Part shown: piece by piece, positions 8,115 through 58,074 of the stretch
How positions within the stretch are numbered: the first letter of the stretch is position 1
Layout of the letters: the number at the start of each line of letters is the position of its first letter
Translations under genes and position numbers: made by a program
Notes under the pieces: model-generated
The model's database searches: none
The model's input: only the letters and a program-made list of their open reading frames with translations
What the model was told of the DNA's origin: nothing
Origin: Escherichia coli
GTDB taxonomy: Bacteria > Pseudomonadota > Gammaproteobacteria > Enterobacterales > Enterobacteriaceae
DNA: 64,000 nt
Assembly (NCBI RefSeq): GCF_024502345.1
Contig: NZ_JALDNN010000001.1
Direction: 5' to 3' (one strand)

Positions 8115-8304
8115 TATCACGGATGCTTTTATAAAAATAATTAGAATAAGTCACTACGCATTCCCATAAATGCGGGAGAGGAATCTATCACATTGATGAA
8201 TGCTAGCCAGATATGTGCCGGGAATGGCGAAAAGCAAAACGGCAGAATATGTAAACAAAAGCGGCAATAAATGTTGCCGGAAGGGATTACGTGCGAACTG
8301 TAAC

Positions 8305-8417
8305 CCTCTCCCTGAAAGGGCGAGGGGGAAACCACCGTTCCCTTTCAGAAAATGAGCTAAACATTGCACGGGACGGTCCCCTCGCCCCTTTGGGGAGAGG
8401 GCTAGGGTGAGGGGCAC
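8305..8417. repeat. REP/BIME-like palindromic repeat cluster
   Basis: CCCTCTCCC..GGGCGAGGGGG at 8305-8329 is the reverse complement of CCCCTCGCCC..GGGAGAGGG at 8378-8400. The spurious ORFs 8154..8468 and 8287..8475 are artefacts of this repeat. Confidence 0.6.
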
Positions 8418-8532
8418 AGGCAGCGCAGGTGCAAACATTCTGCTGGTAGAAGAAGCCCCCAACTCCAACCCGCACGCTAAATATAAAAGGGGAGCGGTTA
8501 CCCGCTCCCCTTTGGTGCGACTTGAATCTGAA

Positions 8533-23004: not shown

Positions 23005-23928
23005 TCACTCATGCCGCGCCGGACGATTTATTTTTCTGGCGCGGCGACGGGAATCCATTGAAATCAAAATCACCGATGACAGAATCAGCAGCGTTCCCAG
23101 CCAGTCCGGTAATGTGAACGTGATCCCCAGCAACAGCAAAGAGAGTAGCGCGCTACTTAATGGTTCTGCACAGCTCAAAATGCTGGCTTTTGGACCGCCA
23201 ATTAATTGTGCTCCTTTCAGGTACAGACTAAATGTCAGGGATGTACCAATGACCACCAAATAAAAAAACGCCAGAATCAAACTGCCGTTAACGACAAAGT
23301 TTGTTCCTTGTCTGGCATAAAAAGGCAACAGAATCAGACCGCCAATCAGCATACTCCAGCCGACGACTGGTAACGTGCCATAGCGGGCAATTAGCGTTGA
23401 GGGATAGGTGGTATAGAATGCAGCAGCAAATGCCGAGGCAATGCCCCAGAACAACGCGGCAGGAGAGATCGATAATGACGTCGGATTACCGTGTGTCACC
23501 AATAAAAAAGTCCCGACCAGCGATGTCAAAATAGCGCAGAAAACCAGAATGCCCGGGCGCGATTTACGCACCAGTGAGAACCAGGCGACGATAATCGTCG
23601 GTGAGAGGAATTGCAGCACCGTTGCCGTGGCTGCGTTCGATTTTTCGATGGTTAGCAAAAAAGTGAGCTGTACAGTTAGCGCGCCAACCACGGAAAAAAT
23701 CAGCAGGCTAATGGCATCTTTATGATTGTTAATAATAGAAAAGATTTTATCGCCATGAACAAATGACAGCGTCAGTAGAATCAAACCGGCGAATATCAAA
23801 CGCGTCATAGTCAAAAACTGCGACGACATCTGGCTTTGCTCCATGATGTATTGCGCGCAGACCCCTGAACTTCCCCACAACACGGCGGCAATCAGAACGT
23901 TCAGCATCCCCTTTCTGGTGGAACCCAT
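23005..23928 (-). CDS. yicL: EamA/DMT-family transporter
   Basis: 307-aa protein with 10 predicted TM segments. Confidence 0.9.
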
Positions 23929-24564
23929 TTTTCCCTCTGCATACTGTTTTGTCGTTTATGTATGCAGGCATGATAGCAAAAATGGCGAGGATGGCTCTGT
24001 TTGCGCCACGCCGATTTTTCTTAGCCCAGACTGGTGAGCTAAATATCTTTAATAAACAGCAGGCAAATCATCGCAATACCCAACATCCCTATCGCCAGCC
24101 AGAACAACGCATGGTAGCTCCAGATTTCAACCATAATTCCGTCAACAGAGCCGGCGATAATCCAGCCGACGCGTGAAGTATTTGCATATAACGTTGTCGC
24201 AGAGCCTATTTTTTCAGGCATCAAGTCCTGAAAATAAAGCATGCCGATACCACAGAGAATACCAAGGAAGATGGCATTAAGAATTTGCAATTCCAGCTCA
24301 ACCGCCGGAGTCGTCGCCATGAGTACGCTGGCGTAAAAACACATTCCACTCACGATAGCAATGAGCATTAATAGTCGCTTGCCAATACGTTTCATGTAAT
24401 AGCCTGCGATTAACATCATCGGAATTTCCAGACCGGCAGCGATACCAATCATTTCTCCAGCCAGTTTATCGGTTAGATGCAGTTCATCAATAATAAATAG
24501 CGGCATATTTATCATGTAGAGATTATTCGCCGCCCACATCATTGAACAAACCACAAAAAGTAGC

Positions 24565-25785
24565 TGTAGATTCAATCTGTCAATGCAACACCCCTTTCAA
24601 TTATCTCTTTCGGTGTTTTGAACTTCAGTGTCTTTCTCGGTCTGTTGTTTAGCTGAGCAGCAACCAGATCTAGTTCATGTTGAGTATATTGGGCAAGACA
24701 TGTCTTTTTAGGAAAGTACTGCCGAATTAGCCCATTTGTGTTCTCATTTGTTCCCCGCTGCCAAGGACTCTGAGGATCGCAGAAGTAAACTTTAACGCCG
24801 GTGCTGACAGTAAATTCTAGATGTCTGGCCAGTTCCATTCCTCTGTCCCATGTCAGTGATTTTCTGAGTTCTGACGGTAAACTCAGGAATTTGTCGGTAA
24901 GAGCCTGATTTACTGAGACAGAATCTTTGCCCCTGAGTCTAAGGATGATCGTATAACGTGATTTTCGGTCTACAAGTGTGGCTATATGAGAGTTTTTTGT
25001 ACCTGAGACTAAATCGCCCTCCCAATGCCCCAGAGAGCGTCTGTTATCGATATTTCGGGAACGTTCGTGAATTGGTGTTCCGTTCACTATGTTAATCGTA
25101 CCTCTTTCGCCTTTGCGGGTATGACGCCTGCCATGGCGAAGGCTATGCGACCGTCGCAGATGCTGTATATTCAGGTGGTGTAGCGCTTCACGGCTACGAA
25201 AGTACAGCGTTTTATAAATTGTCTCAGGTGATATTCGCAGCGTTTTTTGACGTGGTTTTGTTCGCCTTAACCATCCTGATATTTGCTCTGGAGACCATTT
25301 CATCTCCAGCTTTTCCAGAACAAGCTTTCGCAATGGTAAATTTTGATCCAGTAAGCACGGTTTTGGCCTTTTCGCCATTCTGTTGGCTCGGTTATTAGCA
25401 TCAACAGCTTTGTAATAGCGTCTGCCCCGATTACGCTGAACTTCACGTGAGATCGTCGAAGGACTGCGATTCAGCGCAGTAGCTATCGCACGAATGCTCA
25501 TTTTGGCTGACAAACCAGCTCGTATCTCCTCGCGCTCAGACAGTGTCAGGTGAGCTACAGCCCGCTTACGCTCATGGGGTTTTATGCCGCCAGTATCCCT
25601 TAACATAGTGAAGATCGTTCCGGGTTTTGAACCCAGGATATTCGCTATTTCACTGAAGCCTGTTCCGTTCTTCCATAGTTCAAAAACAGAGGCTTTTTCC
25701 TCTGCTGTAAATGTTCGTCTCATTCAAAAAACCTCCGCAACCCCATGTTTTCACATAACTGTTGCGTTGACCAATTGAATCTACA
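24565..25785 (-). mobile_element. IS30 (1221 bp, complete, with terminal inverted repeats)
   Basis: Ends TGTAGATTCAATCTGTCAATGCAAC (24565) and GCGTTGACCAATTGAATCTACA (25785); flanking GC dinucleotide on both sides. Confidence 0.9.
24572..25723 (-). CDS. insI: IS30 transposase
   Basis: 383-aa ORF; matches the IS30 transposase I remember, with an N-terminal HTH region and a C-terminal DDE domain. Confidence 0.9.
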   Translation of the reverse strand: MRRTFTAEEKASVFELWKNGTGFSEIANILGSKPGTIFTMLRDTGGIKPHERKRAVAHLTLSEREEIRAGLSAKMSIRAIATALNRSPSTISREVQRNRGRRYYKAVDANNRANRMAKRPKPCLLDQNLPLRKLVLEKLEMKWSPEQISGWLRRTKPRQKTLRISPETIYKTLYFRSREALHHLNIQHLRRSHSLRHGRRHTRKGERGTINIVNGTPIHERSRNIDNRRSLGHWEGDLVSGTKNSHIATLVDRKSRYTIILRLRGKDSVSVNQALTDKFLSLPSELRKSLTWDRGMELARHLEFTVSTGVKVYFCDPQSPWQRGTNENTNGLIRQYFPKKTCLAQYTQHELDLVAAQLNNRPRKTLKFKTPKEIIERGVALTD

Positions 25786-26875
25786 GCCGCGTATCTCGCT
25801 TTCTATGGATGGAGGGTAAAATTTCTACGGGTTGGGTAACGACAGGAATATTTCTTTGTATTGATGGCAAAAACAACCAGACTATCAGCCCGCAAACAAC
25901 AAATGCGATGGCAGCGGTGAGATACATCACTTTAAAACTAAATCCCATTGCCAGTTCATAAGCGAGCGGTGGCCCGATAACCCAGGCAAGCGAGATCTGA
26001 GCACGTAAAAATGTACTGAACATGACCGTCTCACGGCCTGTTCTATCGGCGTGTTCACGGGCGAGGGCGAACATTTGCGGGTTTGCGGTGGAAGCAAAAC
26101 TACTCAGAAGTACGCCCGTTGAGAGGAGAATGAAGTAGTTGCGATTCCACGCAAAAAGCGTGCAGGCCAGCACTCCAAATAAGCAACATAGCAGAATCAG
26201 TAATTTACGGTCGCCTTGTTTATCGGAGTGCCTTGCCAGAAATTGACTGACCAGAATTCCCATAATAGCGCTACCGGTGAAGAAAAAACCTACCATTATA
26301 GGACGGGCTTTCAGTTCATCTGCGAGGAATATACTTAGGGTAGGAGTCTGAAGAGCGCCCGCAATACCCGTCAGAAAGGCGACAAGTAAAAATGCCGCGG
26401 CAGTGAGATCAAGTATTTTTGATGGAGTGGTAGCCGTTTTTTGCATTCTTCTGAATCACCGGGCGAAAAAATATAACTGAGTTACAAATAAGTACCAGTC
26501 GAATGAGTATTGTATTAAGAATTTTTGAGTATCGCTGATACAACCAGAAAGCAATGCTAGCGCAATATTATAGGGCCAGCAATTGAGATTATTAGCAAAA
26601 GCATGTTAAGAATTAATTACCGAATTTATATATTAATTATAGTAAGGCAATGAGCTATTTTTGATAGTAAAAATAAAACAAGTTGATTTGATATATTAAA
26701 TGAACAAATTAATCTTGATGGCAGTCTGATTATTGGTGAAGTTTATAGTCAGTTTTTTTCGCCAGCGGTTAAAGAAATAGAATAATCGTATAAAAAAGGG
26801 TGTTCTGGGGCGAGTAAAACAACATCTTCACCTTAATGGCGATACAGTTGGCTGAGAGTCAGCAGGGGGGCAAAT

Positions 26876-27000
26876 CACCTGCAAATAAACACGGCGCATA
26901 CTGGCGTGAATATCGCGGATGCGTTCGAGGACAGAAGAACCGACAGGCGGATTCTTCAGCCGCTCATCGTCCATCACAAAACCTTAGACCAGGTATTCCT
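26876..27000 (-). pseudogene. degenerate internal fragment of a rhuM-family gene
   Basis: About 125 bp align to the intact rhuM-like gene at 27741-27890, with an internal deletion of ~25 bp and several substitutions; no intact ORF. Confidence 0.6.
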
Positions 27001-27067
27001 GAAGCCGATTGAATATTGAGCAGTAGAAAATATCTGGATTGACAGTATTACAAGGGGTTGGAGAACG

Positions 27068-27100
27068 TCAGGAGAGGCATTTTGGCGATCACAGGAGTCG
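27068..27100. repeat. degenerate direct repeat of the selC 3-prime end plus flank (candidate distal att site of the island)
   Basis: TCAGGAGAGGC....TGGCG----ATCACAGGAGTCG compared with TCAGGAGAGGCTAATTGGCGGAAGATCACAGGAGTCG at 35848-35884. Confidence 0.55.
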
Positions 27101-27214
27101 CATTCAGCGGCTTGATCTGTTGAATTTAGTGGTTTTTATCGTGTTGGATTTTTGTTGGTGCCCCCTATTATGCCCCCAAATGATTTTGCTTGTGGTGGTT
27201 ATAGGCATTCAGAG

Positions 27215-28252
27215 CTACTTTTTAGGCTCTGTTTTCCATTGTAGCAAACCGGCGATATCCTTCTCACCTTCGGCTTCTTTTAAGCGCCGTTGTTGTTCAG
27301 CAAACTGACCATACTCCGCCTGCGCTTTTTCATCGGCCATTTTCTTACTGATTTTACCTGCGCCTTGCAAAACCTCACGGTCGTTAAATTGCAGGAACTG
27401 ATCCAGCTTATCCTGCCAGTCGCGTAAAAAGACCTGCTGACGACGACGGGCCTGATCCTCGGCAAAATCCAGCCACATGTTAACTACGCGGTTAAGCTCG
27501 CTGACTTCATCCTGAGTGAGATAATTTTTTGCCACCGTCACGTCACCCTTACGCACCTCTTCACCTTTATAGCTGGTCAGCCCCATATGTGGCTGGCTGG
27601 CGTCAGCACGCAGATGAATGAGTTCAGCGGCGGTATGTCCGGTACAGGCAAAATGTAACTTGTTCTGGATGGTTTGAAAAAACTGCGTGGTTTCTTTCAG
27701 TGATGGTTGATAGTCGGCGGCTAACGCAAAGATCTCTCGCACCCGTAAATAAACCCGACGTTCGCTGGCGCGAATATCGCGGATACGCTCCAGCATCTCA
27801 TCGAAATAGTCGGGCACAGCCGATGAACCCACGGGCGGGTTCTTCAGCCGCTCATCGTCCATCACAAAACCTTTGATCAGGTATTCCTGGAGCGTCTGGG
27901 TTGCCCACTGGCGGAACTGCGTGCCGCGAGGGGAGCGAACGCGGTAGCCGACAGCAAGAATAACAGGCAGGCTGTAGTGAAGCCTGTTGCGGCTTACCTG
28001 ACGGCCACCTTCCTGTTGAACTTGTAAGTAAGACTTACAGGTTGCGTTTTGTTCAAGTTCGCCTTCTTCATAGATCGCTTTAATGTGCTGTGTAACTGCC
28101 TGGGGAGTGATCTGATAAAGGTTTGCGATGGTTGCCTGAGGGAGCCATAGTGTCTCTTGCTCAAAGCGGCATTCAACACGAACTTCACCGTCATCGCTGG
28201 CAAACATAACAAATTCGCCTGCCGGGGATTGGGTTAAGTATTTATCTGTCAT
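27215..28252 (-). CDS. rhuM: RhuM-family protein (virulence-associated, function unknown)
   Basis: 345 aa with the family signature LPVILAVGYRVRSPRGTQFRQWAT. Confidence 0.8.
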   Translation of the reverse strand: MTDKYLTQSPAGEFVMFASDDGEVRVECRFEQETLWLPQATIANLYQITPQAVTQHIKAIYEEGELEQNATCKSYLQVQQEGGRQVSRNRLHYSLPVILAVGYRVRSPRGTQFRQWATQTLQEYLIKGFVMDDERLKNPPVGSSAVPDYFDEMLERIRDIRASERRVYLRVREIFALAADYQPSLKETTQFFQTIQNKLHFACTGHTAAELIHLRADASQPHMGLTSYKGEEVRKGDVTVAKNYLTQDEVSELNRVVNMWLDFAEDQARRRQQVFLRDWQDKLDQFLQFNDREVLQGAGKISKKMADEKAQAEYGQFAEQQRRLKEAEGEKDIAGLLQWKTEPKK

Positions 28253-28339
28253 GCCGTCTCCGCTTATATCTGACTCGCAATGCTGTAATCCGCTTAGTAT
28301 GCCAGAAATTCTTGGTGAAGCTTATTACGCAGATAGCGT

Positions 28340-29284
28340 TTATTTTGCGGGCAGCGCTCCCGGATAATGCTTTGCCACAATGTCATTCATCTTCTCCACC
28401 AGGTCCAGACGCTTAAACGTGATATGCCCGTTGCCTTTCTGAAAGTAGCGAATGGTGAACATATCGTCTTTAAAGACCTGTTGATGCGGGTTATCGCGAA
28501 CAAAATTCATAAATCGGATAGAGACATCATGCCGGTTGTCAGGAATGGTTTTGCCATCCAGCAGGTAAAGCATCCGTTCCAGATCGGCGAGCTGATCGCG
28601 CCGCCAGCCCCAGTTCAGACTGAAGCCCCATCTGTCATGCTTCACCAGATTGTTGACGATAATCTTCTTACCGAAGTAACAGGGATTATTGGTTTTGTAG
28701 TCCCAGCTTAACCCTTTAAATACATTGATAATCCCACGTTCGAAAACATCCTGTTTATTGTGGTGGAGTTGTTCAAAGGTACTTAGGATGTTGGCTTCAC
28801 TGATGGCCGGAAGATCGCCCTCTTCGAGGTTTTTAGCCCACTGGCTGCGGGCTTCGGCATCCATCAAGGTCAACATCCCGGACTTCAGCATGAGATCGCG
28901 CCAGATACTGCGATCGATATTGCAGGTAATCACCGGCATCGCTTTATCGACTGGTTGCATCAGCCAGCAGTCAAAGGAATGGCCCTGTCGCATCGCCCAA
29001 TGCTCCGCCACATCACCACCGATGCTGGAGGTTAGCCGTGAGATATCATCAAGCTTATGGATCAGGATTTCTATCAGGCTCAGCGCAGCATCACGCCCTG
29101 TGACGATGCGTTCTATACTGGTTGAGCAAATTAGCTCATTATGATCGGTTAAAACTTCAGCTTCTGTTTGCATGATATTTTGTCCGTAAAAAGCAAACAC
29201 GCCCGCCGGGAGTGGCAGGCGCATTATGCAATGAGTAAATAAGGAAGACAGATCGGGAATGTAATTCGGGAAGGAGGCTCGCAA
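28340..29284 (-). CDS. hypothetical protein, possibly DUF4942-like as is commonly found downstream of CbtA-family toxins
   Basis: 314-aa ORF directly downstream of the cbtA-like gene; family assignment is from memory only. Confidence 0.4.
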   Translation of the reverse strand: MRASFPNYIPDLSSLFTHCIMRLPLPAGVFAFYGQNIMQTEAEVLTDHNELICSTSIERIVTGRDAALSLIEILIHKLDDISRLTSSIGGDVAEHWAMRQGHSFDCWLMQPVDKAMPVITCNIDRSIWRDLMLKSGMLTLMDAEARSQWAKNLEEGDLPAISEANILSTFEQLHHNKQDVFERGIINVFKGLSWDYKTNNPCYFGKKIIVNNLVKHDRWGFSLNWGWRRDQLADLERMLYLLDGKTIPDNRHDVSIRFMNFVRDNPHQQVFKDDMFTIRYFQKGNGHITFKRLDLVEKMNDIVAKHYPGALPAK

Positions 29285-29287
29285 GAT

Positions 29288-29620
29288 TCAGCGTGTCGAA
29301 AGATTATGGCCTTGTCGTAACAACCCCATTGCCTGTCGCGCCCGCAAAATGTCTACAGCCCGCAGATAAGGCGATTGTTCCTGCCAGCTAAATCCTTTGC
29401 GATCGATGCGAACGAGTTCGTATTTTTCCACCAGAAAGTTCACGGCATCGGCAAGAGTAACGCCTGCGTTGATATGTTCCTGAATGACTGTTTCATCGCA
29501 GAATGGCGTGTCACTCAGGGCCAGGCCATAGTGTTGTGCAAGTAGACGGGTCAGTAACATCTGCCAGACGGCCACAGGCGACGGGCATGGCTTCGCTATG
29601 TGTGCGTCCTCCTTTCGCAT
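29288..29620 (-). CDS. CbtA/YeeV-family type IV toxin homolog, with no cognate antitoxin gene upstream
   Basis: Translation [61 protein letters not shown] resembles CbtA ([31 protein letters not shown]); its 5-prime end overlaps the upstream gene. Confidence 0.65.
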
Positions 29621-30329
29621 TGCGCCCGTTCAGACCACCTTTAATCAGGTTCTCCTGAATGCGCTGATAGGTTGTCCAGAGGTCACCGGACTCATCCTGC
29701 CAGCGACGGGGAGCCAGTAGCTGAGATTCCGTCACCGGCTGATGCTCTTCGCCAAAACGATACGTCAGCGCAGCTTGCGCCAGCGCCGCCTGTGCTGGTG
29801 GAGGTAGCATGAGTGACTGCATGGCATCGCGCTTCTCTTCTACGCGGTCAAATATCCCCAGCACTTCGTAAGCCCCTTCAATGACCTTCTCTACTACGTT
29901 GCCTTTATGCGGGACACGCACCTCCCCGAACGACTCGCCGCAAATCAACCCATTTTGGCAAACAGATCTGAATAAACCCGGCAGCATTTGATATGAACTG
30001 GAGCCGTCATGGCTGTTAAGCAGGATTATTTCTGGCACTTGTTTGCCAGTAATCTGGCCTTCTCGGCGTAGGCGCAGCATGTGTTTGGTGTGCTCACGCT
30101 TGCTCTGGTCCCGCACTCGGGTCTGGCAGGCAAAGAACGGTTGAAAGCCTTCACGCTTCAGGTTATCGAGCAGAGTGATTGTCGGAATGTAGGTATAGCG
30201 GTCACTGCGGGATTCATGTTTGTCTTCGCTGAAGACGCTGGGCACATAGTGCGCCAGCTCCTCGCGGGTTAACGGGCGGTCACGGCGCACAAGATTGGTA
30301 GCACCAAAACGGCTGGCTAAACGGGTCAT
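29511..30329 (-). CDS. DUF932/YfjQ-like protein of CP4-type prophage remnants
   Basis: Starts MTRLASRFG..., as I recall for DUF932 proteins of CP4-57-like elements; its 3-prime end overlaps the cbtA-like ORF by 110 bp. Confidence 0.5.
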
Positions 30330-30399
30330 AGGCGACTCCTTTAAAAATGGGCATAAAAAAGCCACCCCGAAGGATGGCCTGGATTGAAAGGCTGGATTA

Positions 30400-30891
30400 T
30401 TAAGGTGAAACAGAAGGGTGTATCTGCGATGCAGTCTTTTCTGAATCTGGTATCGGCAATGCAGATAGTTCGGCAGGACTAAGCTTTCCTGCGCGGTAAA
30501 GTTGCAGTTTCACCAGAATCGGCGCTTTTTGCGACTGAAGGTAACTCAGGCACCATTCCCGCTTCAGGACTATCCTGACCGGGGCAGGCAAAAGCTCATA
30601 TGCTTTGCTAAAAACGACTTCAACAAAAGCATCATCACTCAGTTTATCCTCGGCAATATTCAACAGACCATTGATGACAATATTTTCCAGTAACAGCCTG
30701 TATTTGTCAGAACCCGTTACCGAAGCTTTAACCGTGTTTTCCGGTAAGTGTTCAGAAGATGTGTCATGATTTTCTGTGTGTGCTTTTCTGCGTGAGAAAT
30801 TCAGCTTTTCTGTAAGGCTACGAAATTTTCCTGTGCTATTTTCAGACATCGTAATTTTATCCTGTGGCCTCCGCGTCTTGCCATCAGGCAA
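30400..30891 (-). CDS. hypothetical protein
   Basis: 163-aa ORF just upstream of and co-oriented with the DUF932 gene; no recognisable motif. Confidence 0.4.
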   Translation of the reverse strand: MPDGKTRRPQDKITMSENSTGKFRSLTEKLNFSRRKAHTENHDTSSEHLPENTVKASVTGSDKYRLLLENIVINGLLNIAEDKLSDDAFVEVVFSKAYELLPAPVRIVLKREWCLSYLQSQKAPILVKLQLYRAGKLSPAELSALPIPDSEKTASQIHPSVSP

Positions 30892-31736
30892 GTACGGCGA
30901 GTTTTTTTATCGCTTTAATCAGGCTAAAGGTGGTCAAACCTGCACCTAGAGCCCTGACCGTGACCGAATGGCTTCGCATCAACGTAACCCCCATTACGCA
31001 CAGGACAAGTTGCCACGTACAATCAGGCCATGGGGGGTCATTACCCGGCATGTCCGTAACCACTTCGCTTTGACTATGCACGGAAAACACCTCTACTTGT
31101 AGCCATTAGGGAGCCACTGGCCCTGTTTGCGAATATCAGTAATAATGCCCCCCTCTTTGACCGAAATGGTACGCCAGCTTGGTTCTTTGCTGGATGCATT
31201 CCCATAGGTATACCCGACAGTCATTGTCAGGTTTTCGCCTGAAGTTGTGGTGAGATCAGCCTCATACTTAGCTTCGGTATTTTGTTTGCGAATAAAACGC
31301 ACGGTGTTGATTGCAGAACAGCGAATACTGCTTTTCGCATATTCAAAGGAATTGTTAGCCATTTGGCATCCGTCGTTTTTAATTTCATCCGTCAGGTTTG
31401 CAGAAACATTAAAGTTCTTAGGTACAGGGGCAAATTTAGCCATGTCGTTTCGCATAGTCGGTGGATCTGTCTGAAGCACAAGATAAACAGGACAATCTGA
31501 TTTGCCTACTTCACACGCTTTTGCCACGTAATCACGTACTGGCCATCCAGCATTACCGAAATATTCCGCACCACTTTCATCTTTGCATTGTGACCAGGTA
31601 GCTTTTTTCCCCATCATAATGCCGTCTACCAGCACACAGGTGACGGCTTTTACAGGCTCACCATCCCACCGGACTGCATCAAAGGGCTGAATGCCTGTAT
31701 GGTTCACGTCAAGCGTGTAGGCCTGTGGATTCCTAG

Positions 31737-32932
<1,196 letters not shown>

Positions 32933-33038
32933 CTAATCAGATAGAACAGTCCCGGATAATATTCGGGACTCATACACTGACATACTGAGTTCTGAATTTA
33001 GTAGCAAGATTACTTATGATTATTTAAGGATAGTAACC

Positions 33039-34004
33039 ATGCCTTTAGATTTAAGTAACACCTTAGTTATTGGCATCAGCGCAACCGCGCTTTTCGACAT
33101 GAGTGAATCCGATCGCATGTTTCGCGAAACCTATGCGACCGATCCTGATAGCGCCATTGAAAAGTATCGCGCCTACATGCTGGAGCACGAAAACCAGCCT
33201 TTACAACCAGGAACAGGCTATCCCTTGGTCAAAGCGCTTTTGGGACTCAACCAGCACCGTCAACCCGATGATAAATCACCGCTGGTTGAAGTTGTCGTGA
33301 TGTCGCGTAACAGCCCTGATACCGGTATCCGTGTCCTAAATACCATTCGCCATGACAAACTCGATATTACACGTTCAGCCTTTACCGCAGGTGAAACTGT
33401 TGCCGATTACTTAGATGCTTTTGATGTGGATCTGTTTTTAACGACCAACGTTGAAGATGCGCAAAAGGTGATTGATTCCCGGTTCTGCGCCGCAGCAATC
33501 CTGAAAGATCCGCCTTCTGACGCATCTGATATCCCCGAAGGGCAAGTGCGCATTGCTTTTGACGGTGATGCAGTGCTTTTCTCTGATGAAAGTGAGTTAG
33601 TTTATAAAACTCAAGGGATGGCCGCTTTTCACGCCCAGGAGGATGCGCAGCAAGATATCCCGATGGCTGAGGGACCTTATGCCACTTTGCTAAAAAAAAT
33701 AGCCAAGCTTCAGGAGCGATTGCCAACACGAGTCGAGTATTCTCCCGTCCGTATTGCGCTGGTGACAGCCCGAAATAGCCCTTCGGAAATGCGCGTCATT
33801 AAAACGCTGAGAAGCTGGGGGGTATATGTCGATGAAGCTTTTTTTCTTGGCGGTGTAGAGAAAACAAAAGTTCTGAAGGCGTTTAAACCGCACATTTTCT
33901 TCGACGACCAGGATGTGCATTTGGTTGCTGCCGCAAAGGTTGTTCCTTCCGGTAAAGTACCTTATGCCAGTAATTCAGAGCTTTTTGAAAACGTAGCATC
34001 ATGA
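33039..34004 (+). CDS. HAD-superfamily phosphatase resembling the bacterial 5-prime-nucleotidase family; cytoplasmic
   Basis: HAD motifs in the C-terminal half (IAFDGDAVLF, LVTARN, FFDDQDVH); no signal peptide; N-terminal ~170 aa is a separate domain. Confidence 0.6.
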   Translation: MPLDLSNTLVIGISATALFDMSESDRMFRETYATDPDSAIEKYRAYMLEHENQPLQPGTGYPLVKALLGLNQHRQPDDKSPLVEVVVMSRNSPDTGIRVLNTIRHDKLDITRSAFTAGETVADYLDAFDVDLFLTTNVEDAQKVIDSRFCAAAILKDPPSDASDIPEGQVRIAFDGDAVLFSDESELVYKTQGMAAFHAQEDAQQDIPMAEGPYATLLKKIAKLQERLPTRVEYSPVRIALVTARNSPSEMRVIKTLRSWGVYVDEAFFLGGVEKTKVLKAFKPHIFFDDQDVHLVAAAKVVPSGKVPYASNSELFENVAS

Positions 34005-34052
34005 AACTTTAAACAAATAGCCATCTTTACATCTAGATGGCTATTTGTTAAT

Positions 34053-35267
34053 TTATGCCGTCTTCCTAAATGCACCCTCTACCACACCCCCGCCTTTCCC
34101 CAGCTCACCAATGTAATCCGCATACCACTGCATCATTTGCCTACGCCCATCAAGATACTGCGCATGGTTATACGTGCCGCGAATCGCATTCTTATCGACA
34201 TGGGCAAGCTGCGTTTCAATCCACGCTGAGTTAAAGCCCTGCTCGTGCAGAATGGTACTCATCGTGTGGCGGAAACCATGTCCCGTCAGCCTGCCTTTAT
34301 ACCCTAATAACTCAATGACCTGATTGATGCTTTCCTTGCTGATCGGCTTGCGAGGATCATTCCTGCCGATAAAGACCAGCGCGTGATGTTTTGATATCGG
34401 CTCAAGTTGCTTGAACAGCGCAATAACCTGTTCTGAGAGCGGCACAATATGGGGCCGTTTCATCTTCATCACTTCTGCCGGGATCTCCCATAGTTTTGTC
34501 TCAAAATCGATATCCTCCCAGCGTGCGAAACGTAGTTCTTGCGTGCGTACACCGGTTAACATAATGATCTGAGTGGCGGTCTTCGTGATAACACTGCCGG
34601 TATAACCCGCCAGATCATTGAGAAAGTGAGGTAGTTCATTGGCAGTAAGGAAAGGAAAATGTACCTTTTTTGGCGTAGCTAAGGCGCTGGCAAGATCGGG
34701 GGCGGGGTTGTAATTCGCTCTGCCGGTAATAATTGCAAAACGGAATACTTCCCCGCAGCGCTGGCGAACTTTACGCATTTTCTCCAGCGCTCCGCGTTTC
34801 TCCATCTTACGTAGCGCTTCCAGTAGTTCCATTGGCTTAATATCAGCAATAGGGCGCTTACCGATGTAGGGGAAGATGTCCTTCTCAAAGGTGTCGATGA
34901 TTTCATCGCGGTAGCGCAATGACCAGCGATCGGCTTTAGTCTGATGCCACTCGCGAGCCACGGCTTCAAACGTGTTCTCTGCATTCAGTTTCTGCGCAAG
35001 TTTCTCGGATTTTTTAGTTTCTCCGGGGTCGCCACCTGCCGCCAGAATCTTCTTCGCCGCATCACGTTTTTCACGGGCGTCTGCCAGAGAAACATCGGGG
35101 TAGACGCCAAAAGCGAGACGCTTCTCTTTACCTGCAACGCGATATTTCATGCGCCAGTAGCGTGAGCCATTGGTTGCTACTTCAACGTACAACCCTCCTG
35201 CATCACCTAAGCGATACGTCTTTTCTCTGGGTTTTAACGCACGCACTTTTGCATCAGTTAATGGCAT
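34053..35267 (-). CDS. P4/CP4-57-type tyrosine integrase
   Basis: 404 aa with an N-terminal arm-binding region (YRLGDAGGLYVEV..YWRMKYR) and catalytic R..HGFRHT..Y residues. Confidence 0.9.
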   Translation of the reverse strand: MPLTDAKVRALKPREKTYRLGDAGGLYVEVATNGSRYWRMKYRVAGKEKRLAFGVYPDVSLADAREKRDAAKKILAAGGDPGETKKSEKLAQKLNAENTFEAVAREWHQTKADRWSLRYRDEIIDTFEKDIFPYIGKRPIADIKPMELLEALRKMEKRGALEKMRKVRQRCGEVFRFAIITGRANYNPAPDLASALATPKKVHFPFLTANELPHFLNDLAGYTGSVITKTATQIIMLTGVRTQELRFARWEDIDFETKLWEIPAEVMKMKRPHIVPLSEQVIALFKQLEPISKHHALVFIGRNDPRKPISKESINQVIELLGYKGRLTGHGFRHTMSTILHEQGFNSAWIETQLAHVDKNAIRGTYNHAQYLDGRRQMMQWYADYIGELGKGGGVVEGAFRKTA

Positions 35268-35706
35268 CGTTGTTTCCTCCTGAAAGCAAGAATGCTTTGA
35301 CAGCCTGGGTTTGTTCGGGTGTCAGGGATAGGGTTTGTTTGGTTGTTTTGATGGTTAAGCCGTAATGCTCTGAGAGGGAAAGTTGAAAGGATTGTTTGGC
35401 CCGTTCCTGGCGACGTTGCTCTCTTTCGTGAGCCTTATCGATTGCAGGATCGTAGCCCTCTTTGATTTTTACTCTGGCTTTATCCCTTAGCACAATGGCT
35501 TCTTTAATCGTGACGTCCGGCCATGCTCCAAATGTGAGGCTTTTCTCCTTCCCCTCTATCCGGTACTTCATCCGCCAGCACTTTGACCCCGTTGGATTCA
35601 CCAACAAAAAGAGCCCTCTGCCGATAGAAAATTTGTAAGGTTTACTACGGGCATCAAGTGACTTTATTATTTGATTATTAATGATTTTTTGTTCTTTTGG
35701 TGGCAT
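35254..35706 (-). pseudogene. N-terminal remnant of a second P4-type integrase
   Basis: Residues ~20-95 are homologous to the N-terminus of the adjacent intact integrase (CWRMKYRIEGKEKSLTFGAWPDV); it then runs out of homology and ends 14 bp inside the next gene. Confidence 0.7.
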
Positions 35707-35862
35707 GTCATTTTACCTCCAATGGTTGGTATGCCCAATTGTGCCCCCAAAGGCGTATTGATACCAGTAGACTCCGGTTGACCTCAGAATACAAGGAAGG
35801 CTTGATATATAAGGGATGAGAAGAGATTTTGTTGACGTCAGAAGAGTTCAGGAGAGGCTAAT

Positions 35863-35957
35863 TGGCGGAAGATCACAGGAGTCGAACCTGCCCGGGACCG
35901 CTGGCGGCCCCAACTGGATTTGAAGTCCAGCCGCCTCACCGGAGACGACGATCTTCC
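35863..35957 (-). tRNA. selC: tRNA-Sec (selenocysteine, 95 nt including CCA)
   Basis: The reverse complement reads GGAAGATCGTCGTCTCCGGTGAGGCGGCTGGACTTCAAATCCAGTTGGGGCCGCCAGCGGTCCCGGGCAGGTTCGACTCCTGTGATCTTCCGCCA. Confidence 0.97.
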
Positions 35958-44721: not shown

Positions 44722-45588
44722 ATGAAAAAGCGTCGGAAGGAACCGGAAACGCTACGTGAACACTGTCGCCACATTTTTGGTGATGAGCCGCCAGTGCTCT
44801 GTGTATGGGAAACGGAATTTGATTACGCAGATGCCGAACTCAAGGCGCTGGCGGCTAAAGAGTGGCAGCAGATCAGCGAATGGGATTTGAGTGCTTACTA
44901 TGTACTCAATCTCGTTTATAACGAACCGATGCAAATAGAGTTGTTTCGCTATCTGTTTCCGCTCTGCCTGGCGCAATGGCATGAAACCGTTTTAGCTGGC
45001 GGTTATGGTGATCACTTCGAAGAATCCTTAATGAAGGCATTGCGTCGGCCCTATCTCTGGCAGGAGATGATGAATGCTTCCCAACGCCAGCAGGTACGGC
45101 AATTTTTACTGGACACCGCGTTGCAGCGTATGGATAACGAGCGTGGTTTCAATAACGTTCTTTGCTGGCTGGCGGTGTTCAATACTCTGGGTGGGGCCGC
45201 GCCGTTAATTCGTTCTCTCTGGTCGCGCTGGTGGGCGCTGGATACGCCGGGAAAAGCGGTGTGTGCTATTCAGTATGCCGCGCATCTAATTTATCCCATA
45301 GAAGCCAATCCGTTATGGTCGCAAGAATGGATAGGCTGGGGGCATCCATTAGGCCATAAAGATGGCTGGTCCTCTGATAATCGCGCTTTTCTTCGCCAAA
45401 TGTTAACACCTGAAATGATTGTGGCTGGCGTACAGGCAGCGGCTGAAATTCTGCGTGGTGAACCGGAAGGCGCAATGGCGGCGCGAATTGCACAGGATGC
45501 GTATGAGGCAATGGATATCCTCACTATCCAGATTGAAGATTTACTGCGTGACTTGTCTCGTGATGAGTCTGGTCATGCGTTGGAGTAA
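44722..45588 (+). CDS. hypothetical Trp-rich protein (288 aa) wedged between gltS and recG
   Basis: ATG lies 3 bp after the gltS stop; the 3-prime end overlaps the convergent recG stop by 16 bp; no recognised motif. Confidence 0.5.
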   Translation: MKKRRKEPETLREHCRHIFGDEPPVLCVWETEFDYADAELKALAAKEWQQISEWDLSAYYVLNLVYNEPMQIELFRYLFPLCLAQWHETVLAGGYGDHFEESLMKALRRPYLWQEMMNASQRQQVRQFLLDTALQRMDNERGFNNVLCWLAVFNTLGGAAPLIRSLWSRWWALDTPGKAVCAIQYAAHLIYPIEANPLWSQEWIGWGHPLGHKDGWSSDNRAFLRQMLTPEMIVAGVQAAAEILRGEPEGAMAARIAQDAYEAMDILTIQIEDLLRDLSRDESGHALE

Positions 45589-54280: not shown

Positions 54281-54592
54281 CTATTTTTTCTCTGTAATTT
54301 TTACACTGTTTTCCAACTGCTTAATGCTGACCTGCGGGGTCGGCAACTCCTCAGGCATGGTTCCGCCAAGTTCCTGAATGGTTTGCCTCACCTTGCGACC
54401 TACGTCAAAGTGTGTGGTGTTAGCTTGCTGTTTTGAATTCACGCCATCCCGCTTAAGTTTTTCTTCTGTTTGGGTAGCTACTTTGAACCGGATAACCTCG
54501 AATGGGTGACTGGTGAGATTGGTGCGCCGCCGTTCGATGTGTCGGGTGTGGCCTACCTGCTTCATGGCATGGTGTCGTTCGATAAGCGCCAC
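54281..54592 (-). CDS. small ORF of uncertain reality; its C-terminal ~60 codons look protein-like and may be the remnant of the gene displaced by the islet
   Basis: GTG-initiated 103-aa ORF with a charged C-terminus (TQTEEKLKRDGV...GGTMPEELPTPQVSIKQLE); its 5-prime half overlaps a plus-strand ORF. Confidence 0.3.
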   Translation of the reverse strand: MALIERHHAMKQVGHTRHIERRRTNLTSHPFEVIRFKVATQTEEKLKRDGVNSKQQANTTHFDVGRKVRQTIQELGGTMPEELPTPQVSIKQLENSVKITEKK

Positions 54593-54858
54593 CAGATCGA
54601 ATCAACCCGGCGCACACTGGAAAGCATGGTTGCTGGTGGACTGCTTGAGCGGGTGACAGTGTATGAATCGCGCCAGATACGGCGCGGCGGTGAGACTAAC
54701 GCAACGGTCGTGCGCTACGGTTTACCCGGTCAGTGCGCTGTTATGCGCGATACTGGCGGCGCTGATAGCCTGGCTGATTCCGGTAATACTGCGGAGTTAG
54801 GTCTACCGGCATAGCTTACCCGTGGAGAAATGAATCATCGAATGAGTTTGGTCGGGAG

Positions 54859-55539
54859 TTATTCCACCAGCAAAAATGGCGTTGCCCGGTCTATGACGTT
54901 GATGCCAATTAACGAGCTAACATTTCGACCATTCACAATGCTATCCCGTTCAAGCAAATGCGCTATTTTTTCTACTTCATACCAGTATTGAGCCATGAGG
55001 GCTTTGGTCTTTTCAACGAGTTTAGAAAGCATTAACTCCCTGTTAATTTGCTTATTTGTAGCGCAGATTAAATCGAGCATGTCATTTACGTTAGCCATGT
55101 CATAGCGATGAGGTAGCGAATACTTTTTGTTGAAAATATCGTTGTTTTCGTAAAGGGCTTCGCTTACTGGTCCGGCGAGGGATACAAAAGCGGCCTTTTT
55201 TGCATCGCGCTTTATACCATCCGCATAGTAACGTATGAAAGGGATAACTTTACCATTCTGCCCAACTACACCAGATTTACTATCCCGCAAACGCCCGAGA
55301 TCGTGGCTGTGAATTATGCTGTGTTTAACAACGCCCAAACACTTGGCCTCATGTACATGTTCGCCAGCAACGTAACCGTATTCATCCATAACGGCGATAA
55401 CAATATTGGTTTCACGCCCACCGATATGACCAGGAATAACCGGGACAATTGTGGCAAATTCATTACCGTTAATTGTGCCCTGATAGGCGTTCAGATGAGG
55501 GGCGGCCTCAGAAATTAATCTGCTTTTTTCGATGTTCAT
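54859..55539 (-). CDS. hypothetical protein (226 aa, His-rich central segment), cargo of the integrase islet
   Basis: Clean ORF with a TAA stop; contains HVHEAKC and HSIIHSHD segments; no family recognised. Confidence 0.5.
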   Translation of the reverse strand: MNIEKSRLISEAAPHLNAYQGTINGNEFATIVPVIPGHIGGRETNIVIAVMDEYGYVAGEHVHEAKCLGVVKHSIIHSHDLGRLRDSKSGVVGQNGKVIPFIRYYADGIKRDAKKAAFVSLAGPVSEALYENNDIFNKKYSLPHRYDMANVNDMLDLICATNKQINRELMLSKLVEKTKALMAQYWYEVEKIAHLLERDSIVNGRNVSSLIGINVIDRATPFLLVE

Positions 55540-55761
55540 TTTCAGTCTCCGTTAGGCGGCGGTGAGATTGTCCGGGTACCACATGGTTGACACTTAGATC
55601 CAACACGTAGTCGTACCTATCCAGTGAAAACCATTCCATCACATCGCCGTATTTAGCCCGTTTCATAACGCCACCTTTTACGCTGCGCCTTATTTTGTGA
55701 TTGAGCCAGGCGGTAAGGCTTCCCGCTTTTCGCCCCGTCGGGCTAGACTCAATCTATTCAG

Positions 55762-57021
55762 TTAGTTCGCCCTTCTGAGAGGCGTCACGTTGTAATCTTC
55801 GCCCTTCTCCAGAGCCACCAGCAAGCCCGCCCACTGTGTTAACGCAGCCCGTCGCTCGTCAAAGTATTGGTGACGGTTATAAATCCCCTCTACGCCCTTA
55901 ATGCGATGATTGAGGCATCGTTCCGCCACTACCGGATCAACGCCCAGCGCTGCTAAATGGGTGCGGGCCGTGCGTCGGAAGTCGTGAATCGTGAAATTAG
56001 GCACATCCGGCATTTCGGCGCGAACCTTAGCCAGTGCTACGGGCAGGGTGCTTTCCTGAATATGGGGGATCATGCGGTTTTGCATCTTTCTGGCTGGCAG
56101 TACCCATGCGCTGTTGCATGAGAACGTTTTAAGCTCTCTCAGCCATTCGACGGCTGGCGGTGCTAATGGGATGTCTATAGCGTCGCCGTTTTTGCTGCGT
56201 TCCTCTGGCAAGCGCCATACGGCTTTATCAAAATCGAACTCCTCCCAGCGGGCGGCGCATAACTCCATTTTGCGGACGCATAACGCTAACAGTAATTTGA
56301 ACGTGATTTCGTTCTGGCGACTGAATCCCTTAGCCGTGCGCATGGCTTTGAATAGCTGGATTAACTCATCGCGGGTTAACCAGCGGTCACGGGCAACTTC
56401 TTTCCCTCCGGCGTCTGCCACCTCAAAGGCTGAACAGGGGTTAATCTCCAGCGCGTGCCGTTTGATTCCGTAGTCGAATATGCGGCGCGTCCATCTCAGC
56501 ACGTCCGTTGCTATGGTCGGCGCTCCACGGTCAACAATACTTTTCAGCATGTCGTCGATATGGCGCGGCTTCACGTCCTCTACCTTCATGCTGCCAATGC
56601 AGGGGTTTATATCTTTGTCGATACGGCGGCGGAGTATATCTGGGTGCTTCCAGCGCGGCAGGATCTGACGCTCAAAGTATTCAGCGGCAAGCTCTGAAAC
56701 GCGCATGGCATTCTTCTCTGCTTCGATCTTCGCCAGTGCTTCGGCTTTCCGTTCCTGCTTCTCTCCTGCAACGTCATAGCCCAACGCAACGCGAGCCGAT
56801 AGCTCTTTGGCTGTCTCTCTGGCCTTTGATAGTGATAGCTCGGCATATGAGCCGATAACCATTGCTCGCTGCTTACCTGCGAATTTATAGCGAAAGCGCC
56901 AGAAAGGGACTGTGTAGTTTTTGGGGTAGCAAATATAAAGGCCGTTGCCATCGGCCCTTCCTTCAAATCTATCTCCGGCCTTTATCCATGCGCGGATCTG
57001 CATGTCTGTAATCTTTGGCAT
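55762..57021 (-). CDS. P4-type tyrosine integrase
   Basis: N-terminus MPKITDMQIRAWIK..GLYICYP is typical of the arm-binding domain; C-terminal catalytic HDFRRT..Y residues; start trimmed from 57057. Confidence 0.85.
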   Translation of the reverse strand: MPKITDMQIRAWIKAGDRFEGRADGNGLYICYPKNYTVPFWRFRYKFAGKQRAMVIGSYAELSLSKARETAKELSARVALGYDVAGEKQERKAEALAKIEAEKNAMRVSELAAEYFERQILPRWKHPDILRRRIDKDINPCIGSMKVEDVKPRHIDDMLKSIVDRGAPTIATDVLRWTRRIFDYGIKRHALEINPCSAFEVADAGGKEVARDRWLTRDELIQLFKAMRTAKGFSRQNEITFKLLLALCVRKMELCAARWEEFDFDKAVWRLPEERSKNGDAIDIPLAPPAVEWLRELKTFSCNSAWVLPARKMQNRMIPHIQESTLPVALAKVRAEMPDVPNFTIHDFRRTARTHLAALGVDPVVAERCLNHRIKGVEGIYNRHQYFDERRAALTQWAGLLVALEKGEDYNVTPLRRAN

Positions 57022-57048
57022 TGCGAATACCTGAACATTGAATGGGGG

Positions 57049-57102
57049 TGTGTACATAAACCGATGTACATAAAACCCATTATGTACACCACTATGTACA
57101 CG
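57049..57102. repeat. four TGTACA palindromic iterons upstream of the islet integrase
   Basis: TGTACATAAA, TGTACATAAA, TGTACACC and TGTACACG spaced 12-17 bp apart. Confidence 0.6.
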
Positions 57103-57210
57103 GCAATCGTGCGCTTTGTTGCTTCCTCATGATAGCCCATGATAACAAAAAAGCCCGACAAAATGCGGGCTTTGCTGGTTTTGTGTATCTTTGTGATAGC
57201 TCTTAAATAT

Positions 57211-58074
57211 TTACTCGATATTCTGAATCTGCTCGCGCATCTGCTCAATCAACACTTTCAGCTCAATCGCGGAGTTTGTCACTTCGGCATTGATAGACTT
57301 CGACGCAAGAGTGTTCGACTCGCGGTTGAACTCCTGCATCATAAAGTCCAGACGACGACCAACGGCTTCTTTTTTCTTCAGAATGTTGTAGGTCTCTTTG
57401 ACATGCGCTTCGAGGCGGTCCAGCTCTTCGGCAACGTCAATTCGTTGTGCCAGCAGAACCAACTCCTGCTCCAGACGGTTGTTTTCCAACTGCACCTGAG
57501 CATCTTCCAGCTTCGCGACCAAGCGTTCACGCTGCCATTGCAGGATTTCCGGCATATGGGAGCGGACTTTGACCACTTCGGCGGTGACGCCTTCCAGACG
57601 CTGCTCGATCAATGCTTTCAGTGCCTGACCTTCGGTTTCGCGCGCGACAATAAAGTCGTCCAGGGTGCCATCCAACGCCGCGAGAATTTCAGCGGCAATG
57701 GCGTCAAGATCCTGCTCCTGGGCTGCCATCACGCCCGGCCAGCGCAGAATATCAACCGGGTTGATTTCCCCTTCGTCACTCTGCATTTTTACCCAGTTCG
57801 CGGCAGTTACCAGCTGTTTAGCCAGTTTTTCGTTGAGGATCAGCTCACCTTGCGCGCTAACATCTGGCTCATAGCGCAGGGTACATTCCACTTTACCGCG
57901 CGTCAGGCGAGAACGAATACGCTCACGAACGACAGGTTCAAGGCTACGGAACTGCTCCGGCAGACGAAAGTAAGTTTCCAGATAACGCTGGTTTACCGAG
58001 CGCATTTCCCAGGTTGCGCTCCCCCATTCACCCTTGATTTCACGCCGGGCGTAGGCGGTCATACTGCGGATCAT
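57211..58074 (-). CDS. yicC: YicC-family stress-induced protein
   Basis: 287 aa, MIRSMTAYARREIKGEWGSATWEMRSVNQRYLE. Confidence 0.95.
   Translation of the reverse strand: MIRSMTAYARREIKGEWGSATWEMRSVNQRYLETYFRLPEQFRSLEPVVRERIRSRLTRGKVECTLRYEPDVSAQGELILNEKLAKQLVTAANWVKMQSDEGEINPVDILRWPGVMAAQEQDLDAIAAEILAALDGTLDDFIVARETEGQALKALIEQRLEGVTAEVVKVRSHMPEILQWQRERLVAKLEDAQVQLENNRLEQELVLLAQRIDVAEELDRLEAHVKETYNILKKKEAVGRRLDFMMQEFNRESNTLASKSINAEVTNSAIELKVLIEQMREQIQNIE

Follow-up and report, generated by a model that had tools for sequence, protein, structure and literature searches.

A complete IS30 element interrupts the sugar exporter gene setC next to the selC island of Escherichia coli

Our analysis of a 64,000-nucleotide (nt) stretch of Escherichia coli DNA (contig NZ_JALDNN010000001.1), referred to here as the window, revealed the gene order nlpA, yicL, setC, selC, as in K-12. 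Within this order, setC is split into two pieces by an insertion sequence. The features of the split gene and its downstream neighbor are the following:

23005..23928, minus strand: yicL, the next gene downstream of setC, separated by a 110-nt gap (from the open reading frame [ORF] list and K-12 gene order)
24039..24564, minus strand: setC 3′ fragment, about 174 native codons, stop codon at 24039-24041; collinear with K-12 and extending over the left-hand GC of the duplicated target
24563..24564: target-site duplication copy 1, GC; a single GC in intact alleles
24565..25785, minus strand: complete IS30, transposase codirectional with setC, 100% identity to other copies
24565..24590: IS30 right inverted repeat (IRR), 3′ of the transposase gene
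25723..24572, minus strand: intact IS30 transposase gene, 383 amino acids (aa) (from the ORF list and domain searches)
25760..25785: IS30 left inverted repeat (IRL), 5′ of the transposase gene
25786..25787: target-site duplication copy 2, GC
25786..26446, minus strand: setC 5′ fragment, codons 1-220 (by comparison with K-12 setC)

Direct reading, together with a check of the ends by script, identified the element at 24565..25785 as a complete IS30 of 1221 bp. It begins with TGTAG (TGTAGATTCAAT) and terminates with CTACA (ATTGAATCTACA), and its terminal inverted repeats of 26 nt agree at 23 of 26 positions. A repeat search returned arms of 28 nt (89%) rather than 26, because the flanking GC is palindromic and extends the repeats. 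The target duplication consists of GC on both sides, and a single GC is found at this place in the intact alleles of K-12 and FDAARGOS_944. The preliminary description of this DNA, which had reported a complete 1221-bp IS30 with both terminal repeats and a 2-bp GC target duplication, was accurate in each of these respects (24565..25785; 23/26 match; 24563-64 and 25786-87).

The transposase carries the Pfam domains HTH_38 (1.6e-23) and rve (4.1e-14) and reached 276 bits against the NCBIfam model transpos_IS30 (cut-off of 80). Over all 1221 nt, the element was 100% identical to IS30 copies present in many complete E. coli genomes, and some IS30 match was present in 3,824 of the 5,426 complete genomes; the difference from the annotated IS30A of K-12 MG1655 amounted to 2 nt and 1 aa. 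Since the match is a full-length element at 100% identity, chance similarity is not an issue. Hence, the IS30 hallmarks that can be tested in silico were all found here, namely, length, repeats, an ORF with helix-turn-helix and DDE/rve domains, the 2-bp duplication, and identity with the type element. No other IS30 sequence occurs in the window, 24565..25785 being the sole copy. With both its ORF and its ends intact, this copy would be expected to be active in transposition.

The two pieces of setC were compared with intact alleles, a test that had been proposed in the preliminary description. Removal of the element and one GC joins 24039-24564 to 25788-26446 and restores an uninterrupted 1185-nt ORF of 394 codons, which aligns without gaps to K-12 setC (b3659) with 1177 of 1185 nt identical (99.3%); the two genes differ by 8 nt and 2 aa. 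The intact setC of FDAARGOS_944 is even closer, with one synonymous nucleotide difference and no amino acid difference, and the two halves are contiguous and gap-free against both references. The protein encoded by the repaired gene contains an MFS_1 domain (Pfam, 1e-40) and scored 645 bits against the sugar efflux transporter model TIGR00899 (cut-off of 522). The earlier estimate of about 220 and 175 codons for the two halves also held, and its outer limits, 24039 and 26446, are exactly the stop and the start of setC.

The reading frame of setC as it stands in the window is interrupted, with IS30 inserted after gene nt 659-661, i.e., at codon 220-221. The truncated 5′ ORF (26446..25781) comprises 221 aa and ends at a TAG stop codon created by the IS30 end (C/TG TAG, with the slash marking the junction). 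According to hydropathy, the polar stretch SIQRNIPVVTQPVEILPSIHRKRDTR runs up to the break, and a hydrophobic segment follows directly. MFS proteins have a general 6+6 architecture, and the break probably falls in the loop that joins the N- and C-terminal MFS halves.

Five of the eight nucleotides that distinguish the window's setC from the K-12 gene (nt 638, 642, 645, 651, and 675) are clustered within 22 nt of the insertion (window about 24550-25810), and every one of these changes raises the A/T content of the site. We considered that this cluster might be a consequence or a prerequisite of the insertion and rejected both ideas: FDAARGOS_944 has the same allele intact, and K-12-type alleles without those single-nucleotide polymorphisms (SNPs) also carry IS30 at the site.

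SetC, a poorly characterized exporter of sugar, possibly arabinose, is the least studied of the three SET exporters. In K-12, deletion of setC raised and its overexpression lowered an intracellular arabinose readout (PMC3429515). Direct reading of 24565-24600 revealed no obvious ribosome-binding site ahead of the setC 3′ half, and in a promoter and terminator scan of 23700-27200, promoter-like sites were less numerous than in shuffled sequences and none read into the 3′ half. An outward TTGAAT in the IS end had no correctly spaced −10 hexamer in the flank. Given that translation stops after 221 residues and that neither a promoter nor a ribosome-binding site was found for the 3′ half, SetC was most likely lost through the IS30 split, which would make this a null allele; the 3′ half is presumably unexpressed, and no arabinose-related function as in K-12 would be expected of the split gene. 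A polar effect of the insertion on yicL is possible.

A split MFS transporter need not be inactive, as proteins divided in the central loop, such as LacY, are sometimes functional when both halves are made. Accordingly, the setC promoter could drive synthesis of the N-terminal six-helix half and read-through from IS30 that of the C-terminal half, with the two assembling into a functional exporter. The location of the break within the interdomain loop would suit such an arrangement, as would the common orientation of IS30 and setC, which could allow read-through transcripts to span the 3′ half; furthermore, the mechanical ORF list contains an in-frame 178-aa ORF that starts with TTG within the IS end and runs into the 3′ half. 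We nevertheless regard a functional split exporter as very unlikely, given the lack of promoter-like and obvious ribosome-binding sites before the 3′ half and of a properly placed partner for the outward TTGAAT; in addition, the reverse-orientation insertions of other lineages described below could not use the read-through route. Most likely loss of SetC remains our preferred reading. In any case, setC is clearly a dispensable gene, since a setC match was found in only 4,281 of the 5,426 complete genomes and others carry an IS-split setC. For the annotation of this genome, setC is an IS30-disrupted pseudogene, and the strain is probably short of one minor sugar exporter.

Upstream of setC, comparison with K-12 reveals an additional genomic island; it is integrated at the selC 3′ end, and a partial copy of the tRNA end marks its boundary. 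The preliminary description had placed the insertion next to the selC island, and this was confirmed, since the setC start and the near end of the upstream island are 654 nt apart. Its coding content comprises RhuM, DUF4942, a CbtA toxin, DUF932, an IS5-family transposase, a 5′-nucleotidase, and a P4-type integrase:

about 27101..35847: selC-associated island, about 8.7 kb, absent from K-12
27215-28252: RhuM, intact
31805-32785: IS5-family element
33039-34004: 5′-nucleotidase, PF06189
34053-35267: integrase, intact, 404 aa
35254-35706: second Arm-DNA-binding fragment, beside selC
35863..35957, minus strand: selC, tRNA-Sec

The CbtA toxin gene is immediately followed by DUF932, and no antitoxin or RadC domain was found by Pfam in the scanned ORFs of the island. 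As a whole, the island had no match in complete E. coli genomes and is a patchwork. Because the second Arm-DNA-binding fragment adjoins selC, the arrangement suggests that remnants of two successive integrations may be present at this tRNA gene.

Three further segments of the window differ from K-12. A 2.7-kb segment at 54479-57211, between yicC and yicG, stands in place of K-12 dinD and contains two ORFs, neither of which had a PADLOC match:

54859-55539: 226-aa ORF of no convincing family
55762-57057, minus strand: tyrosine integrase, 431 aa

A 288-aa ORF (44722-45588) with no Pfam or PADLOC match occupies the gltS-recG interval, which measures only about 180 bp in K-12. Near the tisB/istR-ivbL intergenic region, about 177 bp (8287-8465) correspond to about 39 bp in K-12.

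We then examined the distribution of the insertion in E. coli. Queries spanning the junctions at both ends matched none of the 5,426 complete genomes, a synthetic query representing the reverse orientation likewise matched none of them, and an exact-pattern scan for the left junction found it absent from the species representatives of GTDB. In contrast, public draft and metagenome contigs did yield carriers. The exact 221-aa truncated product occurred in 62 blocks of a large assembly collection; in five contigs (L018, L019, L022, L023, and L025), the stop codon is followed by the left end of IS30 as in the window, with 0 to 2 mismatches, and L019 also contains the window's island genes upstream. 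The other junction, in which the transposase 3′ end is followed by the setC 3′ half, was matched at 100% over 848-1336 nt in L038-L041. The designation of the insertion as strain-specific in the preliminary description can thus be upheld for the 5,426 complete genomes, from which the insertion is absent, but not beyond them, since the same junctions exist in other draft and metagenome assemblies and, moreover, other setC alleles were apparently hit independently, and in the other orientation, at the same dinucleotide. The insertion is rare, lineage-restricted, and recurrent.

As IS elements commonly cause misjoins and the junction occurs in no complete E. coli genome, we considered that a repeated IS30 could have been misplaced in setC during assembly. 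An artifact of this kind would hardly leave a perfect 2-bp duplication and a perfectly repairable gene, and both junctions were found independently in contigs from other samples that had been assembled with large k-mers; we therefore consider it extremely unlikely and treat the insertion as genuine.

A megablast search with the region as query returned 18 complete genomes that covered at least 80% of it. These were rejected as carriers of the same insertion, because the joining of alignment pieces had merged an intact setC with an unrelated IS30 of the selC island, at a distance of about 1.5 kb. In these 18 genomes, the IS30 copy is partly truncated and lies in the selC island about 1.3-1.5 kb from the intact setC; it is conceivable that such a copy serves as a local donor for hops into setC.

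The carriers differed in both the orientation of the element and the allele of setC. Three contigs (L020, L021, and L024) combine the window-type allele with an inverted IS30 at the very same dinucleotide. A look-up with a K-12-type fragment (T213) recovered more junctions at the site, with the element inverted in every case: L030 and L034 have a K-12-like allele, L028 has a variant of it, and L027 and L035 have a divergent allele with at least eight additional SNPs. The contigs reach into the IS over a stretch shorter than the assembly k-mer, and their orientation should therefore have been fixed by junction-spanning reads, judging from contig names and tails. The same dinucleotide is consequently occupied in both orientations and in at least three setC allelic backgrounds. 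The carriers differ by SNPs at gene nt 638, 642, 645, and 651, at distances of 9-22 nt from the junction, which renders the spread of one event by recombination unlikely. The simplest reading of these junctions is that at least four independent IS30 insertions took place at one dinucleotide of setC.

Two other observations concern the ends of contigs near codon 221. Five contigs that end in native sequence 1-3 nt beyond the site were first read as a signal and then rejected, because an exact-length look-up picks contigs that chance to end at codon 221. In L026 (Logan SRR7213657), whose setC allele is divergent, an IS10 end (CTGATGAATCCCC) lies 1 nt beyond the position used by IS30, and this insertion coincidentally yields the same 221-aa truncated product.

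A comparable situation was seen in pbp4b (yfeW), where IS30 occupies an identical position in the complete genomes L014 (TW10690) and L054 (TUM1881) but is oriented oppositely in the two. The duplication is imperfect (GT/GC) in one of these genomes, and the left arm resembles that of the setC site. On these two junctions, pbp4b is a second apparent recurrent chromosomal target of IS30.

The opposite view would be that a single ancient insertion, passed on by descent and recombination, gave rise to all public IS30::setC alleles, and that the site is not a preferred one. Contigs that share orientation and allele (L018, L022, L023, and L025) have differing selC-side contexts, as an old event followed by turnover of the island would produce. 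This history conflicts, however, with the opposite orientation of IS30 at the same dinucleotide in L020, L021, L024, L027, L028, L030, L034, and L035, and it would require implausibly short recombination tracts to account for SNPs that differ 9-22 nt from the junction. The contigs also suggest that carriers are scattered among noncarriers in at least three clades, in both orientations. The use of the pbp4b site both ways in two complete genomes provides a precedent for repeated hits, and the setC site ranks as the window's best match to the usual IS30 target, as detailed below. Descent from one ancient insertion thus appears distinctly improbable, and recurrent insertion remains the simplest reading.

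To assess target preference, we used as probes the flanks of IS30 copies that had been picked without regard to the setC site; these probes are empirical and stand in for the published 24-bp consensus. Most such copies reside in IS911/IS3-type transposase genes, with the target ...ATTAAAAAAAGCA-AC-CGCGTATTTTGC..., and the setC site reads ...CCACAAAAAGTA-GC-CGCGTATCTCGC.... When the window without the IS was scanned on both strands with the ±14-nt flanks of the IS911/IS3-type target, the empty setC site matched at 19 of 28 positions and ranked first among 125,496 positions (mean of 6.9, standard deviation of 2.35). With two related probes, the site ranked second in the window, and since the probes are mutually homologous, they amount to roughly one independent reference. 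Other IS30 copies exhibited the same 2-bp duplications and the A-rich/T-rich arm pattern, in a comparison for which half of the first flank set had been preselected by likeness to the setC site. At other IS30 copies, BLAST matches of the junction reach 14-19 nt into the flank, which represents the same signal as the similarity detected by the target scan. Our literature search found neither a description of the setC site as an IS30 hot spot nor a link between IS30 and E. coli setC. A natural IS30 hot spot that seems to have been used repeatedly would be mildly notable.

IS30 is known for a dual target specificity, inserting into nearly palindromic hot spots or beside its own ends, and it moves by a copy-out/paste-in mechanism that generates 2-bp duplications (PMC9333248). 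The element transposes by way of a circular IR-IR intermediate. The best explanation here is that a single IS30 copy entered the setC coding sequence. It landed at codon 220-221, in a sequence favored by IS30, and produced the standard 2-bp duplication (GC), severing the transporter gene between the parts for the N- and C-terminal halves. Translation from the setC start yields 221 residues before it reaches the TAG in the IS30 end. The event was probably recent, because the element matches active-type copies at every position, its target duplication is perfect, and nothing else is defective in the repaired gene. As K-12 collinearity holds on both flanks, no rearrangement was involved. Collectively, we consider it highly probable that the window carries one simple insertion of IS30 that is recent and lies in a favored target, with probable loss of SetC.

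A more far-reaching proposal is that codon 220-221 is a genuine hot spot and that the repeated knockouts may reflect selection in gut E. coli against sugar efflux through SetC, beyond target preference and neutrality. It could draw on the number of inactivations, as setC was apparently hit by IS30 at least four times in both orientations, by IS10 1 nt away, and by IS1 and IS5 elsewhere, and on the complete absence of setC from about a fifth of the complete genomes. We regard this proposal as unlikely.

Current knowledge of IS30 and of MFS transporters is not altered by the insertion. Its value lies in providing a natural chromosomal IS30 target that appears to be used repeatedly with single-nucleotide precision and may serve as a lineage marker, and in the caution that identical IS junctions across strains may arise without common descent. 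The setC site is also a candidate for a defined target in IS30 transposition assays.

Compared with known systems, setC of the window occupies the same position as in K-12 (b3659, yicK; a SET-family MFS sugar exporter), in the order selC-setC-yicL-nlpA, but is interrupted where the K-12 gene is intact. Splits of setC by other elements have the same outcome; IS1 is found near gene nt 987 in many complete genomes and an IS5-family element in FDAARGOS_943, and the positions differ from the IS30 site except for that of IS10. The element itself shares with the IS30 of K-12 (the type element, with copies IS30A/C/D) the length of 1221 bp, the 26-nt repeats, the 383-aa transposase, and the 2-bp duplication, and it differs in location alone, K-12 IS30A lying within IS911A and the window's copy within setC. 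With the natural IS30 hot spots (lambda LHS and the IS911/IS3-type target), the setC site shares an A-rich arm, 2 bp, and then a CGCGTAT..T-rich arm. Like natural IS30 hot spots, the setC site is used both ways, as expected of a nearly palindromic target (PMC9333248), although its self-complementarity is modest in comparison (18/46). Finally, the left arm of the setC site, ACAAAAAGTAGC, resembles AATAAAAGTGGC of the lambda LHS.
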